The notes beneath the pieces were generated by a model. The model had not been told where the DNA came from. It saw nothing but the letters and a program-made list of their open reading frames with translations, and did no database searches. The translations under genes and the position numbers were made by a program. This document shows, one piece after another, positions 1 to 8,293 of a stretch of DNA of 8,293 nucleotides. Positions within the stretch are counted from its first letter, which is position 1. Every line of letters begins with the position of its first letter. This stretch comes from Naegleria gruberi (lineage: Eukaryota): assembly GCA_000004985.1 (NCBI GenBank), contig GG739075.1; one strand, given 5' to 3'.

Positions 1-221
1 CCCATAAATTCAATCGGAGTAAATTCATCATTTTTAGAACATTCCCATCGATTGGTTAAATATTTCATTTTGTAAAATTGTTGATTCCTAAATTTACATT
101 TCAACAATTCAAGTAATTGCTCCAAAGATGATGAAACAATTTTATAATTATTCGAATCATCATGATCACTACTATATTGAATATTAACGTCAGAGAAATT
201 TGGTTTCATTTTTTTTAACAT
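1..221 (-). CDS. Hypothetical protein, N-terminal part of a minus-strand gene that runs off the left edge of the window. Reverse-complement reading gives MLKKMKPNFSDVNIQYSSDHDDSNNYKIVSSSLEQLLELLKCKFRNQQFYKMKYLTNRWECSKNDEFTPIEFMG... The L-x2-LL-x2-L ... W region has only weak F-box-like character.
   Basis: On the minus strand there is an in-frame TAG stop (rc of 254..256), then ATG (rc of 219..221) and a second ATG (rc of 207..209). The frame stays open to position 1, at least 73 codons. It is transcribed divergently from the RNR small-subunit gene and is not in the supplied ORF track, probably because it has no stop within the window. No confident homology was recognised by eye. Confidence 0.35.
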   Translation of the reverse strand, partial: MLKKMKPNFSDVNIQYSSDHDDSNNYKIVSSSLEQLLELLKCKFRNQQFYKMKYLTNRWECSKNDEFTPIEFM

Positions 222-260
222 CCAGATTTCTAATTCCTTCTTTCTATTATTATGCTAACA

Positions 261-812: not shown

Positions 813-1394
813 ATGAATCATTTAGAACCTAAACTCTTTGAACAATACAAACAATTAGAAAAAGAAGAGGAAATCCTCAAAGAAAATCCTCATCGTTTTG
901 TTCTCTTTCCACTTCATTATCCTAAAATGTGGGAAATGTACAAAAAGACAATGGCTTCATTCTGGACAGTGGAGGAGGTTGATCTTCACACTGATATAAC
1001 TGAATGGGAAAAACTCAACTCTAATGAACAACATTTCATCAAGACAGTGCTGGCCTTCTTTGCGGCCAGTGATGGAATTGTCAATGAAAATCTATGTCAA
1101 CAATTCATGGCACAAGTTCAAGTACCAGAAGCAAGATGTTTCTATGGATTTCAAATTGCCATTGAAAATATTCATGCTGAAATGTATAGTACTCTCATTG
1201 AAACTCTGATTAAAGACCAAAGAGAAAGAAATCGTCTATTTCATGCCATTGATACAGTACCATCAGTTCAAAAGAAAGCTAACTGGGCATTGAAATGGAT
1301 TAATTCTGAGAATTTGTTTGCTGAAAGATTGTTGGCATTTGCATGTGTGGAGGGAATTTTCTTCTCTGGAAGTTTTTGTTCAATTTTCTGGTTA
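813..1394 (+). CDS. RRM2: Ribonucleotide-diphosphate reductase small subunit (R2/RRM2 family, class Ia, di-iron/tyrosyl radical subunit). This is the 5' partial CDS, 194 codons, truncated by the assembly gap.
   Basis: The translation is [58 protein letters not shown]...[16 protein letters not shown]...[30 protein letters not shown]...[10 protein letters not shown]...[24 protein letters not shown]. It matches the conserved eukaryotic R2 core (human RRM2: [89 protein letters not shown]) almost residue for residue. The iron-ligand and radical-site context is present. The track ORF 807..5990 begins at a TTG; the first ATG in frame is at 813, with an in-frame TGA at 795..797. The frame runs straight into the N run at 1395. 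Confidence 0.9.
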
Positions 1395-4300
1395 NNNNNN
1401 NNNNNNNNNNNNNNNNNNNNNNNNNNNNNNNNNNNNNNNNNNNNNNNNNNNNNNNNNNNNNNNNNNNNNNNNNNNNNNNNNNNNNNNNNNNNNNNNNNNN
1501 NNNNNNNNNNNNNNNNNNNNNNNNNNNNNNNNNNNNNNNNNNNNNNNNNNNNNNNNNNNNNNNNNNNNNNNNNNNNNNNNNNNNNNNNNNNNNNNNNNNN
1601 NNNNNNNNNNNNNNNNNNNNNNNNNNNNNNNNNNNNNNNNNNNNNNNNNNNNNNNNNNNNNNNNNNNNNNNNNNNNNNNNNNNNNNNNNNNNNNNNNNNN
1701 NNNNNNNNNNNNNNNNNNNNNNNNNNNNNNNNNNNNNNNNNNNNNNNNNNNNNNNNNNNNNNNNNNNNNNNNNNNNNNNNNNNNNNNNNNNNNNNNNNNN
1801 NNNNNNNNNNNNNNNNNNNNNNNNNNNNNNNNNNNNNNNNNNNNNNNNNNNNNNNNNNNNNNNNNNNNNNNNNNNNNNNNNNNNNNNNNNNNNNNNNNNN
1901 NNNNNNNNNNNNNNNNNNNNNNNNNNNNNNNNNNNNNNNNNNNNNNNNNNNNNNNNNNNNNNNNNNNNNNNNNNNNNNNNNNNNNNNNNNNNNNNNNNNN
2001 NNNNNNNNNNNNNNNNNNNNNNNNNNNNNNNNNNNNNNNNNNNNNNNNNNNNNNNNNNNNNNNNNNNNNNNNNNNNNNNNNNNNNNNNNNNNNNNNNNNN
2101 NNNNNNNNNNNNNNNNNNNNNNNNNNNNNNNNNNNNNNNNNNNNNNNNNNNNNNNNNNNNNNNNNNNNNNNNNNNNNNNNNNNNNNNNNNNNNNNNNNNN
2201 NNNNNNNNNNNNNNNNNNNNNNNNNNNNNNNNNNNNNNNNNNNNNNNNNNNNNNNNNNNNNNNNNNNNNNNNNNNNNNNNNNNNNNNNNNNNNNNNNNNN
2301 NNNNNNNNNNNNNNNNNNNNNNNNNNNNNNNNNNNNNNNNNNNNNNNNNNNNNNNNNNNNNNNNNNNNNNNNNNNNNNNNNNNNNNNNNNNNNNNNNNNN
2401 NNNNNNNNNNNNNNNNNNNNNNNNNNNNNNNNNNNNNNNNNNNNNNNNNNNNNNNNNNNNNNNNNNNNNNNNNNNNNNNNNNNNNNNNNNNNNNNNNNNN
2501 NNNNNNNNNNNNNNNNNNNNNNNNNNNNNNNNNNNNNNNNNNNNNNNNNNNNNNNNNNNNNNNNNNNNNNNNNNNNNNNNNNNNNNNNNNNNNNNNNNNN
2601 NNNNNNNNNNNNNNNNNNNNNNNNNNNNNNNNNNNNNNNNNNNNNNNNNNNNNNNNNNNNNNNNNNNNNNNNNNNNNNNNNNNNNNNNNNNNNNNNNNNN
2701 NNNNNNNNNNNNNNNNNNNNNNNNNNNNNNNNNNNNNNNNNNNNNNNNNNNNNNNNNNNNNNNNNNNNNNNNNNNNNNNNNNNNNNNNNNNNNNNNNNNN
2801 NNNNNNNNNNNNNNNNNNNNNNNNNNNNNNNNNNNNNNNNNNNNNNNNNNNNNNNNNNNNNNNNNNNNNNNNNNNNNNNNNNNNNNNNNNNNNNNNNNNN
2901 NNNNNNNNNNNNNNNNNNNNNNNNNNNNNNNNNNNNNNNNNNNNNNNNNNNNNNNNNNNNNNNNNNNNNNNNNNNNNNNNNNNNNNNNNNNNNNNNNNNN
3001 NNNNNNNNNNNNNNNNNNNNNNNNNNNNNNNNNNNNNNNNNNNNNNNNNNNNNNNNNNNNNNNNNNNNNNNNNNNNNNNNNNNNNNNNNNNNNNNNNNNN
3101 NNNNNNNNNNNNNNNNNNNNNNNNNNNNNNNNNNNNNNNNNNNNNNNNNNNNNNNNNNNNNNNNNNNNNNNNNNNNNNNNNNNNNNNNNNNNNNNNNNNN
3201 NNNNNNNNNNNNNNNNNNNNNNNNNNNNNNNNNNNNNNNNNNNNNNNNNNNNNNNNNNNNNNNNNNNNNNNNNNNNNNNNNNNNNNNNNNNNNNNNNNNN
3301 NNNNNNNNNNNNNNNNNNNNNNNNNNNNNNNNNNNNNNNNNNNNNNNNNNNNNNNNNNNNNNNNNNNNNNNNNNNNNNNNNNNNNNNNNNNNNNNNNNNN
3401 NNNNNNNNNNNNNNNNNNNNNNNNNNNNNNNNNNNNNNNNNNNNNNNNNNNNNNNNNNNNNNNNNNNNNNNNNNNNNNNNNNNNNNNNNNNNNNNNNNNN
3501 NNNNNNNNNNNNNNNNNNNNNNNNNNNNNNNNNNNNNNNNNNNNNNNNNNNNNNNNNNNNNNNNNNNNNNNNNNNNNNNNNNNNNNNNNNNNNNNNNNNN
3601 NNNNNNNNNNNNNNNNNNNNNNNNNNNNNNNNNNNNNNNNNNNNNNNNNNNNNNNNNNNNNNNNNNNNNNNNNNNNNNNNNNNNNNNNNNNNNNNNNNNN
3701 NNNNNNNNNNNNNNNNNNNNNNNNNNNNNNNNNNNNNNNNNNNNNNNNNNNNNNNNNNNNNNNNNNNNNNNNNNNNNNNNNNNNNNNNNNNNNNNNNNNN
3801 NNNNNNNNNNNNNNNNNNNNNNNNNNNNNNNNNNNNNNNNNNNNNNNNNNNNNNNNNNNNNNNNNNNNNNNNNNNNNNNNNNNNNNNNNNNNNNNNNNNN
3901 NNNNNNNNNNNNNNNNNNNNNNNNNNNNNNNNNNNNNNNNNNNNNNNNNNNNNNNNNNNNNNNNNNNNNNNNNNNNNNNNNNNNNNNNNNNNNNNNNNNN
4001 NNNNNNNNNNNNNNNNNNNNNNNNNNNNNNNNNNNNNNNNNNNNNNNNNNNNNNNNNNNNNNNNNNNNNNNNNNNNNNNNNNNNNNNNNNNNNNNNNNNN
4101 NNNNNNNNNNNNNNNNNNNNNNNNNNNNNNNNNNNNNNNNNNNNNNNNNNNNNNNNNNNNNNNNNNNNNNNNNNNNNNNNNNNNNNNNNNNNNNNNNNNN
4201 NNNNNNNNNNNNNNNNNNNNNNNNNNNNNNNNNNNNNNNNNNNNNNNNNNNNNNNNNNNNNNNNNNNNNNNNNNNNNNNNNNNNNNNNNNNNNNNNNNNN

Positions 4301-5986
4301 NNNNNNNNNNNNNNNNNNNNNNNNNNNNNNNNNNNNNNNNNNNNNNNNNNNNNNNNNNNNNNNNNNNNNNNNNNNNNNNNNNNNNNNNNNNNNNNNNNNN
4401 NNNNNNNNNNNNNNNNNNNNNNNNNNNNNNNNNNNNNNNNNNNNNNNNNNNNNNNNNNNNNNNNNNNNNNNNNNNNNNNNNNNNNNNNNNNNNNNNNNNN
4501 NNNNNNNNNNNNNNNNNNNNNNNNNNNNNNNNNNNNNNNNNNNNNNNNNNNNNNNNNNNNNNNNNNNNNNNNNNNNNNNNNNNNNNNNNNNNNNNNNNNN
4601 NNNNNNNNNNNNNNNNNNNNNNNNNNNNNNNNNNNNNNNNNNNNNNNNNNNNNNNNNNNNNNNNNNNNNNNNNNNNNNNNNNNNNNNNNNNNNNNNNNNN
4701 NNNNNNNNNNNNNNNNNNNNNNNNNNNNNNNNNNNNNNNNNNNNNNNNNNNNNNNNNNNNNNNNNNNNNNNNNNNNNNNNNNNNNNNNNNNNNNNNNNNN
4801 NNNNNNNNNNNNNNNNNNNNNNNNNNNNNNNNNNNNNNNNNNNNNNNNNNNNNNNNNNNNNNNNNNNNNNNNNNNNNNNNNNNNNNNNNNNNNNNNNNNN
4901 NNNNNNNNNNNNNNNNNNNNNNNNNNNNNNNNNNNNNNNNNNNNNNNNNNNNNNNNNNNNNNNNNNNNNNNNNNNNNNNNNNNNNNNNNNNNNNNNNNNN
5001 NNNNNNNNNNNNNNNNNNNNNNNNNNNNNNNNNNNNNNNNNNNNNNNNNNNNNNNNNNNNNNNNNNNNNNNNNNNNNNNNNNNNNNNNNNNNNNNNNNNN
5101 NNNNNNNNNNNNNNNNNNNNNNNNNNNNNNNNNNNNNNNNNNNNNNNNNNNNNNNNNNNNNNNNNNNNNNNNNNNNNNNNNNNNNNNNNNNNNNNNNNNN
5201 NNNNNNNNNNNNNNNNNNNNNNNNNNNNNNNNNNNNNNNNNNNNNNNNNNNNNNNNNNNNNNNNNNNNNNNNNNNNNNNNNNNNNNNNNNNNNNNNNNNN
5301 NNNNNNNNNNNNNNNNNNNNNNNNNNNNNNNNNNNNNNNNNNNNNNNNNNNNNNNNNNNNNNNNNNNNNNNNNNNNNNNNNNNNNNNNNNNNNNNNNNNN
5401 NNNNNNNNNNNNNNNNNNNNNNNNNNNNNNNNNNNNNNNNNNNNNNNNNNNNNNNNNNNNNNNNNNNNNNNNNNNNNNNNNNNNNNNNNNNNNNNNNNNN
5501 NNNNNNNNNNNNNNNNNNNNNNNNNNNNNNNNNNNNNNNNNNNNNNNNNNNNNNNNNNNNNNNNNNNNNNNNNNNNNNNNNNNNNNNNNNNNNNNNNNNN
5601 NNNNNNNNNNNNNNNNNNNNNNNNNNNNNNNNNNNNNNNNNNNNNNNNNNNNNNNNNNNNNNNNNNNNNNNNNNNNNNNNNNNNNNNNNNNNNNNNNNNN
5701 NNNNNNNNNNNNNNNNNNNNNNNNNNNNNNNNNNNNNNNNNNNNNNNNNNNNNNNNNNNNNNNNNNNNNNNNNNNNNNNNNNNNNNNNNNNNNNNNNNNN
5801 NNNNNNNNNNNNNNNNNNNNNNNNNNNNNNNNNNNNNNNNNNNNNNNNNNNNNNNNNNNNNNNNNNNNNNNNNNNNNNNNNNNNNNNNNNNNNNNNNNNN
5901 NNNNNNNNNNNNNNNNNNNNNNNNNNNNNNNNNNNNNNNNNNNNNNNNNNNNNNNNNNNNNNNNNNNNNNNNNNNNNNNNNNNNNN
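1395..5986. other. Assembly gap: 4,592 consecutive N. It hides the 3' half of the R2 gene and about 3 kb or more of unknown content.
   Basis: An uninterrupted run of n. The three ORF-track 'proteins' of ~1,500-1,700 aa (807..5990 +, 1300..6039 -, 1318..6042 +, 1343..6013 +, 1392..5999 -) are poly-X artefacts of translating N. Confidence 1.
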
Positions 5987-6010
5987 TTAAACTTAACATT
6001 AAACTTAACT
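5987..6010. repeat. Short tandem direct repeat, two copies of a 12-bp unit (ttaaacttaaca / ttaaacttaact), immediately abutting the gap edge.
   Basis: The 11-mer ttaaacttaac occurs at 5987..5997 and again at 5999..6009. It is followed by a (GAT)3 microsatellite at 6011..6022. Confidence 0.6.
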
Positions 6011-6169
6011 TGATGATGATGGTGTTGCTGCGATGGCAATGATAAAGATTGAGAGTTTAATAATATAAATCACATGTTTTATAATCCATGATTGAGAAGA
6101 TTGGGTGGGCGGGAAGAAGATTAGATTTATGGAATTTTAATTAAATGAACAAGTAAATGCTAAGTTCAT

Positions 6170-6265
6170 AATGAAATGGTGGTGAAGGAATTAATGATGG
6201 AAATTGATGATGAGAATGGGATGAACATGATTTGATGGAATTGGATGGATTTAGAATTGGAAAAT
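6170..6265 (+). repeat. Strand-asymmetric purine-rich low-complexity tract with only one C in ~95 nt. It is built from degenerate GGAAT / GATGG / AATGG-like units.
   Basis: The sequence aatgaaatggtggtgaaggaattaatgatggaaattgatgatgagaatgggatgaacatgatttgatggaattggatggatttagaattggaaaatc is read directly. It lies just 3' (in the minus sense) of the stop of the minus-strand exon, so it is probably 3'UTR. Confidence 0.4.
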
Positions 6266-6667
6266 CAAAACATATTGAGTTTCAGAAGTGGATATTGACT
6301 GTTTGTGAACACATGTTGATAAAATCATTTCATTCTTCAAATGTGAAATAACAGTTGAACCTTTTTTACATTCATCAAATGATGGTTTACAAATATTGAT
6401 AGAAATCCATGGATTTCCTTTTATGTAAATATCTGCAATATCACCACTGTCTTCAACATTTCCTTTTAAATCTGTTACTAAATAATTTTGTAATGTTTCA
6501 TTATTTGGACTATTATATTGGAATAATCCAACAAAATAAATAAAATCTTTAAAATAGGTTAAAGAATTAATTCCATTTTGGGAAGGATTTGAAGATTTTT
6601 GATTTTCTGTTAGAATTGTTCCTGTTTTGAAAGTTCTTGCATAATGACATAATATTTCAAGAATTAT
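6251..6667 (-). CDS. Probable terminal coding exon of an unannotated spliced minus-strand gene, hypothetical protein. The open frame has no ATG; the stop is TAA, rc of 6251..6253. The true 5' (acceptor) boundary is uncertain. The first AG after a poly-pyrimidine tract on the minus strand would put the exon start near 6635.
   Basis: The minus-strand frame is open for 138 codons between TAA (rc of 6668..6670) and TAA (rc of 6251..6253): IILEILCHYARTFKTGTILTENQKSSNPSQNGINSLTYFKDFIYFVGLFQYNSPNNETLQNYLVTDLKGNVEDSGDIADIYIKGNPWISINICKPSFDECKKGSTVISHLKNEMILSTCVHKQSISTSETQYVLIFQF*. In ~68% AT sequence the expected random open length is ~13 codons, so 138 codons is very unlikely by chance. The track missed it because it has no Met. 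Upstream on the minus strand is a T10 polypyrimidine run (rc of 6681..6690) followed by the first AG (rc of 6636..6637), a plausible 3' splice site. ATTAAA poly(A)-signal candidates lie on the minus strand ~110 and ~190 nt downstream of the stop. Confidence 0.4.
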   Translation of the reverse strand: MILEILCHYARTFKTGTILTENQKSSNPSQNGINSLTYFKDFIYFVGLFQYNSPNNETLQNYLVTDLKGNVEDSGDIADIYIKGNPWISINICKPSFDECKKGSTVISHLKNEMILSTCVHKQSISTSETQYVLIFQF

Positions 6668-7262
6668 TTATGGAATTGGAAAAAAAAAATTTAGTTAATT
6701 TTTAATTAAATATTAATAGCCATTTAGTTAGATACTAATTCAATGACTTGTACATTGAAAGAAGCACTAGTTCAACACCATGATTCATGTCTCTTTTCAA
6801 ATCCAAACCAGGTGAAACAAATTTCAATTCTGAAAATCATTTGAAAGTCATATTATCAAAGAATCAGTGTTTAATTCTTGAAAAAGATATGCTTAAAAAA
6901 TGGTATAAGAAATTTACATTCCTTCCAAAGATTGTTTCTGAAAAAATGGAATTTTTACAACGAACTATTGTAGTATGTTTTACAATACTTTTTAAAGATA
7001 TTAAACAATGATAGTTTACTATTGTATTGAGCAAGGGAGGTTCAGATTCTTTTGAAATATAGACAACACTTCCACCAGCAATATTTAAATTAATTATTCA
7101 GAGAATAAAGTCTGGAAGAGGATCACTTAGATTGTAATTGTTTTCAATGTTAAATTTCAAGAAACAAGTTTGGAAAGTGGTCTAATAAACTGTCGTGTGG
7201 CTATACTGGAACAACCAATCTGTACCCAAGTTCTGTTTTGGAATGTATTGGCAATAAAAAAA

Positions 7263-7469
7263 ATGAAACAAGCTCAGCAATTATTGTTGATGGTTGTTAT
7301 CATGTTCATCATCTACTTTATCAATACAACAACAATGTTTGTGAATTCAACAGCTAGTCAATGTACAGGTCCATATGATACACACGAAAGTGGAACTAAT
7401 ACTATTACACCTCGAGATTCTATTGAGAAATCTGTATTAAAATCCATGAATACACAAATCTCACATTAA
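7263..7469 (+). CDS. Small hypothetical protein of 68 aa with a hydrophobic N-terminal segment that could be a signal peptide or signal anchor. It may be the first exon of a larger gene.
   Basis: An ATG at 7263 in A-rich context (aaaaaaaATGa) is in frame with the track ORF 7170..7469, which itself starts at a TTG. The product is MKQAQQLLLMVVIMFIIYFINTTTMFVNSTASQCTGPYDTHESGTNTITPRDSIEKSVLKSMNTQISH*. It has a 14-residue hydrophobic core, two N-x-T/S sites and a TAA stop at 7467..7469. The ~100-codon open frame is only marginally significant for this base composition. Confidence 0.3.
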   Translation: MKQAQQLLLMVVIMFIIYFINTTTMFVNSTASQCTGPYDTHESGTNTITPRDSIEKSVLKSMNTQISH

Positions 7470-7701
7470 AAGAAATCCTAAACATTACAAAATAACTGGT
7501 CCTACCAATTTATCATCAAGTCAATCAAGAACTTTATTTACTGGAATTAAAAAGGAGAAATGTGTTGCCTGTAGATTAAATTGTAAAGATTTAAATGTTT
7601 TTAGTAAATGTAATGAAAAATACTATTATTATGGATGCAGAAAGAACCATGTTATAATAGAAAGAATGAAGACGAAACTGTTATTCAAACCGCCATTGTA
7701 A
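7450..7701 (+). CDS. ATG-less cysteine-rich open frame. It is a possible internal exon or the frameshifted continuation of the 7263 gene. The motif C-x2-C-x3-C-x8-C-x7-C-x3-H looks like a zinc-binding motif.
   Basis: Frame +1 relative to the 7263 ORF is open for 84 codons from 7450 to the TAA at 7699..7701: IHTNLTLKRNPKHYKITGPTNLSSSQSRTLFTGIKKEKCVACRLNCKDLNVFSKCNEKYYYYGCRKNHVIIERMKTKLLFKPPL*. It overlaps the end of the upstream ORF by 20 nt. It has no initiator Met except late in the frame. The Cys/His spacing is read directly; the family is not assigned. Confidence 0.22.
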   Translation: MHKSHIKRNPKHYKITGPTNLSSSQSRTLFTGIKKEKCVACRLNCKDLNVFSKCNEKYYYYGCRKNHVIIERMKTKLLFKPPL

Positions 7702-7873
7702 TTTGTATTGAAAAGAATTCATGCAAATTGAAGAAAGTTAATGCAATTAATCCTCAACAATATTTACAAATTTATATGCAAACTGTTTCACAATCACCTT
7801 ATTCTCCAAAAGATTATTAGAGCACAATTCTAAAATTGAATAAGTTTACAATTATTTCGAATAACAATAAAAA

Positions 7874-8263
7874 ATGCCCAAACATTCCTTCACTGATTTG
7901 TTAATTGTTGCAATAAGTGATGATCATCATACTTCCGATGATGATGATGATAATGATGATGAACATGATTGTGATAAATTAATATTTAAACATTTTCAAC
8001 AAATTTCCTCTGCCAGAATTGAAAAAAACAAATCAATTTATAAGCATCTATTATTATTAGAAAACCGATTAGAAACCATTTCCACATTCATTGAAAAATA
8101 TCCATTTCCTGATAATGATTGTAAATTGGCAATTTTTAAAGCAGTGAGTAAAAATGGATTATTTCTGGAAGCAGCTTCTGCAAATTTGAGAAATGATGAG
8201 GAAATTGTAATGAGAGCTGTTAAAAAAAATGTAAATGCTATAGAGTTTGTGAGTGAAGAATGA
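7874..8263 (+). CDS. Hypothetical acidic protein with a poly-Asp tract and a C-terminal DUF4116-type repeat. The TGA stop at 8261..8263 may instead lie inside an intron, because a GTGAGT donor starts at 8249.
   Basis: The ATG at 7874 is in A-rich context (aataaaaaATGc). The 129-aa product is MPKHSFTDLLIVAISDDHHTSDDDDDNDDEHDCDK...DCKLAIFKAVSKNGLFLEAASANLRNDEEIVMRAVKKNVNAIEFVSEE*. The segment KAVSKNGLFLEAASANLRNDEEIVMRAVKKNVNAIEFVSEE matches the DUF4116 repeat consensus (AV.qNG.aL.yAs.eLknD.eiV..AVkqNg.Al.fas.e). A 130-codon open frame is significant for this composition. Confidence 0.5.
   Translation: MPKHSFTDLLIVAISDDHHTSDDDDDNDDEHDCDKLIFKHFQQISSARIEKNKSIYKHLLLLENRLETISTFIEKYPFPDNDCKLAIFKAVSKNGLFLEAASANLRNDEEIVMRAVKKNVNAIEFVSEE
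7937..7976 (+). repeat. Imperfect (GAT)n trinucleotide microsatellite, coding poly-Asp (DDDDDNDDEHDCD) inside the 7874 CDS.
   Basis: The sequence gatgatgatgatgataatgatgatgaacatgattgtgat is read directly. Confidence 0.6.
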
Positions 8264-8293
8264 GAAGTGATAGAGAATTTGGAAGAGGATGAT

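Follow-up and report, generated by a model that had tools for sequence, protein, structure and literature searches.

Gene content of the window

The window, by which we mean the whole 8,293-nt stretch of DNA that was analyzed, is on sequence grounds nuclear DNA of Naegleria gruberi in the standard genetic code. A ciliate-type genetic code was considered and dropped, since the RNR small-subunit gene can be read without interruption in the standard code, CAA being Gln. Outside a long run of N the window is AT-rich, with a G+C content of ~28-32%. The genes and the gap lie as follows:

813..1391, plus strand: first 193 codons of the RNR small subunit (Pfam PF00268, E = 1.5e-70)
1394..5986: N-run of 4593 bases, which truncates the RNR small-subunit gene past codon 193
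6254..6667, minus strand: stop-to-stop open frame of 138 codons (IILEILCHYARTFKTG...QYVLIFQF), from translation and a stop-to-stop scan
7263..7820, plus strand: small gene whose N-terminus is signal-peptide-like (MKQAQQLLLMVVIMFIIYF...) and which then becomes Cys-rich, from ORFs and GC3 periodicity
7874..8293, plus strand: DUF4116 (PF13475) gene (Pfam E = 3.2e-14 on 7874..8260)

The RNR fragment matches 'predicted protein [Naegleria gruberi]' (XP_002680453.1, NAEGRDRAFT_31365) at 100% identity; this is a complete protein of 338 aa with no X that is recorded on a scaffold of 695,587 nt. Since the database protein is complete while the copy in the window runs into N, either the N-run hides sequence or the window is a redundant small scaffold. 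In the second case it would plausibly consist of two contigs, of 1.4 kb and 2.3 kb, that mate pairs have linked, an option made plausible by the N. gruberi assembly being Sanger-only, with 1,977 scaffolds (PMC9928731). The 8.3-kb piece, two contigs around 4593 N, looks like a low-coverage mate-pair mini-scaffold. This question bears on the sequence quality across the whole window. A second RNR small-subunit paralog of N. gruberi (P0002, 88% identical) is found on a different scaffold. On the other side of the RNR gene, an ORF with an ATG start (MKPNFSDVNIQYSSDHDDSNNYK...; 3..254, minus strand) is divergent from it and exits the left edge of the window; this ORF has no Pfam match and no matching annotated N. 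gruberi protein.

We compared the window with the RNR locus of Naegleria lovaniensis (L001, PYSW02000045.1). The RNR gene alone was common to both, and neither flank was similar by tblastn, tblastx, or blastn, so the gene order around the RNR small-subunit gene differs on both sides between N. gruberi and N. lovaniensis. The missing similarity of the flanks says little, since the pangenome paper omitted N. gruberi from its synteny analysis for being too distant (PMC9928731). The block to the right of the N-run, which holds the frame of interest, is 2307 nt long and has a G+C content of 28%, compared with 35% genome-wide (PMC9928731).

A 138-codon open frame on the minus strand

The frame and its immediate surroundings comprise the following elements:

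6251..6253, minus strand: TAA stop closing the open frame, from translation
6668..6670, minus strand: in-frame TAA, upstream bound of the open frame
6668..6740, minus strand: tract of 15% G+C directly upstream of the frame
6680..6689, minus strand: T10 run (A10 on the plus strand), called a polypyrimidine tract in the initial annotation

Translation and the stop-to-stop scan agreed with the initial annotation on the extent of the 138-codon frame, its TAA end, its peptide, and its being the longest stop-to-stop frame past the gap. The frame had also been described as start-less, and an early Met is indeed missing, with the first in-frame ATG at codon 114 and not at ~117 as had been given. The in-frame codon directly upstream is TAA (6668..6670), and thus the frame cannot simply be extended in the 5' direction. 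The tract of 15% G+C that begins there is compatible with a promoter or 5' flank, or with an intron.

The peptide, which includes GNPWISINICKPSFDECK, has an abundance of I, S, N, L, T, and K against only two Ala and one Arg, an extreme composition of the kind expected from translated AT-rich DNA. Its four cysteines are at positions 7, 93, 100, and 119. No hydrophobic segment suggesting a signal peptide or membrane segment was found in the 138 residues (maximum Kyte-Doolittle average over 19 residues, 0.93). AlphaFold2 run on the 138-aa sequence without an alignment gave a pLDDT of 33 and was uninformative.

Two pairs of short direct repeats containing (G)GAATTGGA flank both ends of the frame, one at 6232..6245 and 6667..6680 (13/14 identical) and the other at 6254..6282 and 6673..6701 (22/29 identical). 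These repeats are probably coincidence since, by our own estimate, chance alone would give about six such 14-mers in the block. Furthermore, the plus strand has a strong GC skew of +0.48 to +0.54 across 5987..6400, and the minus strand past the stop of the frame is therefore C-rich and G-poor (CATCATCATCAAG..., CCCGCCCACCC). This C-rich stretch could be a 3' UTR or a local effect of composition.

Coding signal of the frame

In DNA of 25-28% GC, the length of an ORF on its own is weak evidence. A frame of at least 138 codons was found in 44 of 3000 dinucleotide-preserving shuffles of the 2307-nt block (1.5%), in which the longest frame averaged 86 codons. The length of 138 codons is thus by itself moderately unusual and not decisive. 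Roughly a hundred frames of this length would, by our own estimate, occur by chance across the 41-Mb genome, which speaks for the view that the frame is a chance opening in AT-rich noncoding DNA and that there is no gene. The same view draws on the lack of a start codon, homolog, or annotation, and on an amino acid composition typical of translated AT-rich DNA. It also draws on codon usage. The log-odds score was +9 bits over the 138 codons, and a frame on the plus strand that contains stops scored +10, the training set of the model being limited to two N. gruberi gene fragments and three N. lovaniensis genes.

The distribution of G+C over codon positions argues otherwise. In the 138-codon frame it is 0.32/0.32/0.12 for positions 1, 2, and 3 (chi-square p = 9e-5). 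The counts of G are 28/15/6, with the maximum at position 1, a pattern that the window's RNR and DUF4116 genes also show. As a null, we took 1215 ORFs of at least 100 codons from shuffled sequences and measured GC3 minus GC1/2 in each. The depletion in the frame was -0.196, which none of the 1215 chance ORFs equaled (mean +0.004, sd 0.053). Because the null mean is +0.004, the GC3 depletion is not a by-product of picking a stop-free frame. This depletion discriminated well here. The signal was also mapped in 45-nt bins:

6335..6695 (approximate limits), minus strand: zone of 3-base periodicity in the phase of the frame

Within these limits, G+C is found at 10/120 (8%) of the coordinates with remainder 2 modulo 3, which are the third codon positions, and at 38/120 and 39/120 in the other two phases. 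The periodicity follows the phase of the sole open frame, each of the other five frames having 7-15 stops, and it fades outside ~6335..6695. It is absent in the last ~27 codons (6254..6334). Scans for tandem repeats, tRNAs, and Rfam families found nothing in the frame that would account for it. The frame had been called far longer than expected by chance. By the shuffles its length is only moderately unusual, and its coding character is supported by the length together with the GC3 depletion. The 138-codon frame probably is, or until very recently was, coding sequence, and we regard a chance opening as quite improbable.

Searches for homologs

Pfam searches with the 138-aa sequence, with and without a 9-codon upstream extension, returned only noise of 12-14 bits from unrelated families, the cut-offs being 25-27. 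A word-indexed search of 5.8 billion protein clusters gave no match to the frame and no self-match in N. gruberi, indicating that the frame belongs to no annotated N. gruberi model. The RNR fragment served as a control; it recovered its own annotated model at 100% identity, while the 138-aa frame recovered none. A full HMMER search of 1.84 billion representatives yielded a single match (P0121, E = 2.9e-5). P0121 was rejected as a homolog, as its pairwise BLASTP comparison with the frame gave E = 0.06 and 22% identity. The match is an artefact, since P0121 has ~14 tandem repeats of 67 aa that each score weakly.

No PDB sequence matched the 138-aa frame at E up to 10. An exact 38-mer of the frame was not found in viral contigs, and scans of JGI metagenomes and IMG/VR with back-translated motifs gave nothing confirmed. 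These searches agree with the earlier statement that the protein has no recognizable similarity: no true match came from Pfam, PDB, the cluster search, HMMER, or the metagenome and viral loci. To call the frame a candidate lineage-specific gene, as had been done, is fair, for it is unannotated and without a detectable relative.

Broken genes in the neighborhood

The other two coding-like segments in the block are also irregular. The DUF4116 gene, about 1.2-1.6 kb from the 138-codon frame, is interrupted by an in-frame TGA (8261..8263). When the reading is shifted by one base at 8261, it continues as ...VSEELRSDREF..., the Pfam score rises from 52.7 to 65.9 bits, and the match spans the full profile and enters a second repeat. 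This gain shows that the DUF4116 gene carries a real 1-nt frameshift, which is either a sequencing error or the mark of a pseudogene. The small gene at 7263..7820 is split over three frames (7263..7469, 7450..7698, and 7617..7820), with GC3 periodicity in frames 0, 1, and 0 in turn. The split could be due to introns or to indels. This gene has no Pfam match and is unannotated.

A further minus-strand frame upstream of the 138-codon frame, at 7183..6738, is open for ~145 codons save three TGA and one TAG. It has its third codon positions in common with a 74-codon ORF on the plus strand (6787..7011), and a weak periodicity was seen within it at 6947..7126. It contains, in the stretch 7097..6867, the motif NIAGGSVVYI, which recalls the GGA[ILV] repeats of PMP and beta-helix proteins. 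The frame at 7183..6738 has no Pfam match, no homolog, and a negative coding score. When eight neighboring ORFs, including the ORF upstream of the RNR gene, were joined into one query, no annotated N. gruberi model was matched.

That all three coding-like segments within 2.3 kb are broken suggests either thinly covered, error-prone sequence or a cluster of young pseudogenes. In the second case, the 138-codon frame would be what is still open of a longer or rearranged gene in decay, as its neighbors would be too. Such a history would fit the breaks in all three segments (a start-less frame, a frameshifted DUF4116 gene, and a gene at 7263..7820 in three frames), the nearly open frame upstream on the same strand, the failure of any annotated protein to match the ORFs of the block, and the low G+C content of the block relative to the genome (PMC9928731). 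The breaks are, however, equally explicable as sequencing errors, and the upstream frame has a negative coding score and no Pfam match. Moreover, stops accrue fast in an AT-rich frame, about 7.5% of codons. Given 138 intact codons with a strong GC3 signal, any inactivation must have been very recent. We consider a decaying remnant in a pseudogene patch unlikely.

How the frame may begin: splicing

The initial annotation regarded the frame as probably the terminal exon of a spliced gene. In the form considered here, the acceptor AG would be inside the frame and a short exon bearing the ATG would be upstream. There is no early in-frame ATG and an in-frame TAA stands directly upstream, as a terminal exon would have it. 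Between 6735 and 6600, the minus strand has AGs only at 6637-6636, 6623-6622, and 6608-6607, each of which is 30-60 nt into the frame and within the periodic zone. The first of these lies 43 nt beyond the T-run, and the AG before it is at 6736-6735, which leaves an AG-free stretch of 97 nt (6734..6638, minus strand). This stretch holds the T10 run and CTAAC-like motifs, features that would suit an intron end. The T10 run followed by an AG had been placed before the frame; the run does precede it, at 6689..6680, and the first AG is inside the frame, at codon 11. At a local G content of ~5%, an AG-free stretch of this length is insignificant (~0.14 by our own estimate).

We enumerated models by combining each upstream ATG with each GT donor and with the AG acceptors in the region of the frame. 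Six models with a single intron keep the frame open, with introns of 112-172 nt and products of 121-141 aa. Their donors are GTGTTG, GTACAA, GTCATT, and GTTGAA, and a donor that starts with GTA is present in one model alone (GTACAAGT). The elements of this model are:

6754..6788, minus strand: hypothetical first exon of 35 nt, ATG AAT CAT GGT ... = MNHGVELVLLS- (formal model)
6636..6753, minus strand: hypothetical 118-nt intron, aat/GTACAAGT ... TGCAAG/aac (formal model)
6636..6637, minus strand: first AG after the AG-free stretch, candidate 3' splice site with the exon from 6635 (sequence)
6635..6251, minus strand: hypothetical exon 2 of the GTA-donor model (formal model)

Its product would be a protein of 139 aa beginning MNHGVELVLLSITFKTG.... 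As a formal candidate the model is not absurd, and it is without positive support.

As a yardstick, six introns were reconstructed from the annotated N. lovaniensis genes of the RNR locus. They are 45-158 nt long, their donors are GTATGT (three times), GTAAGT, GTACAA, and GTATTA, and their acceptors, AAG, CAG, or TAG, lack an obvious polypyrimidine tract. The lengths of the model introns are within or near this range, the donor GTACAA is that of one N. lovaniensis intron, and AAG acceptors occur there, which is to the credit of splicing. No donor in the models, in turn, matches the GTATGT or GTAAGT of four of the six reconstructed introns. The ATG of the hypothetical first exon overlaps, in a CATG palindrome, the ATG of the 74-codon ORF on the plus strand. 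In addition, the coding-phase periodicity extends 30-60 nt upstream of the AGs, to ~6695, albeit over few codons; the counts of G+C by codon position are 8/5/1 in the bin 6605..6649 and 2/5/0 in the bin 6650..6694.

The same enumeration on the neighboring plus-strand gene gave 6767 formal solutions. Therefore, GT..AG rescues come free in this AT-rich DNA, and such a rescue of a start-less frame is worthless unless transcript data accompany it. N. gruberi is also intron-poor, which counts against a spliced gene. With AGs inside the frame, weak donors, and formal models that are trivially frequent, the frame can no longer be called a probable terminal exon, and we regard this origin as rather unlikely.

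How the frame may begin: a one-base indel

An intronless gene with a single-base indel had been named as the alternative to splicing. Two ATGs lie close to the 5' end of the frame and out of register with it:

6648..6650, minus strand: ATG one base out of frame (sequence)
6640..6642, minus strand: ATG out of frame in the opposite direction (sequence)

The out-of-frame ATG had been given as 6641..6643; its actual position is 6642..6640, and the one at 6650..6648 had gone unmentioned. Deleting one base after the ATG at 6650 would produce an intronless reading frame of 133 aa (MHYARTFKTG...), and adding one base after the ATG at 6642 (for example, caag to caaag) would produce one of about 130 aa (MQRTFKTG...). 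Since the neighboring DUF4116 gene has a demonstrable 1-nt frameshift, a single-base indel is at least as likely as splicing. An indel near the start is further favored by the periodicity, which is in the phase of the frame from the bins 6605..6649 and 6650..6694 onward, and by the passage of the gene at 7263..7820 through frames 0, 1, and 0. The alternative has thus proved at least as good as the reading to which it had been secondary.

We tentatively favor a small intronless gene with a one-base indel at its start, the indel being an artefact or a very recent mutation. The frame would then be the genuine coding sequence of an unannotated gene that, to judge from the searches, is restricted to N. 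gruberi. Transcription would run leftward from the tract of 15% G+C at 6668..6740, and translation would start at the ATG at 6650 or at 6642, which a single-base insertion or deletion has put off register. The predicted product is a soluble protein of ~130-140 aa with a high content of Ile, Ser, and Asn, four cysteines, and neither signal peptide nor membrane segment. The indel may have arisen as an error where the Sanger draft is thinly covered, or it may be a genuine and very recent frameshift; if it is genuine, the frame is a young pseudogene. The position of the start codon, the indel, and the expression of the sequence are what we infer here, on top of an open frame, a periodicity, and a neighboring frameshift that are present in the DNA as it stands, and of the lack of any homolog or annotation in the searches.

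Several observations weigh against the intronless gene. The proposed indel is ad hoc. Neither ATG is in the A-rich context of the three clear start codons of the window. Any clean copy on the 695-kb RNR scaffold is likewise unannotated, and the homolog searches were empty and lend no backing to expression. The periodicity is missing from the last 27 codons and the amino acid composition is extreme. Finally, the codon-usage score is only weakly positive and is not separated from that of one plus-strand frame.

Comparison with known systems

The locus represents no new kind of element but an ordinary gap in the annotation of a protist draft genome from 2010. The 138-codon frame, on a scaffold of the N. 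gruberi draft, is in our view a candidate for an orphan gene or for a recently formed pseudogene. That it is a functional gene or coding exon, born in the N. gruberi lineage, young, possibly de novo, unrelated to anything in sequenced organisms, and missed by the 2010 annotation, is possible if somewhat unlikely. The finding matters little beyond annotation hygiene. If the frame is expressed, it would be one more species-restricted small protein in a genome full of 'predicted proteins' and a minor data point on how orphan genes appear in AT-rich heterolobosean genomes.

Among known families, the first six residues of the frame, IILEIL, which follow 'PIP-stop', are superficially like the core of an F-box. 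This core is LPxEIIxxIL. An F-box was rejected, since neither an F-box (PF00646/PF12937) nor an F-box-like Pfam match was found at E = 10, even when the upstream stop was read through. Beta-helix receptor kinases with Chlam_PMP repeats came into consideration through a 1102-aa gene near the RNR gene of N. lovaniensis (L001, 14329..17740). Chlam_PMP (PF02415) and beta-helix proteins were also rejected, as there was no Pfam match and the right-hand block was unlike the N. lovaniensis locus by tblastn and tblastx.

The DUF4116 gene has in common with the frame the block in which it lies, a low GC3 (0.18 compared with 0.12 in the frame), the lack of annotation, and a broken reading frame. Unlike that gene, the 138-aa frame gave no match to DUF4116 at E up to 10. 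The two lie on opposite strands with ~1.2 kb between them, so the frame does not belong to the DUF4116 gene.

A close comparison is with the orphan predicted proteins of N. gruberi and of other protist draft genomes. The 138-codon frame differs from these in being absent from the annotated N. gruberi set and in having no in-frame start codon, and for want of the latter it fails as a gene model unless a splice or an indel correction is allowed. In other respects it resembles them: it has no relative even in N. lovaniensis or in databases containing N. fowleri, and, like them, it is short, AT-rich, intron-poor, devoid of Pfam domains, and visible only through ORF length and coding statistics.
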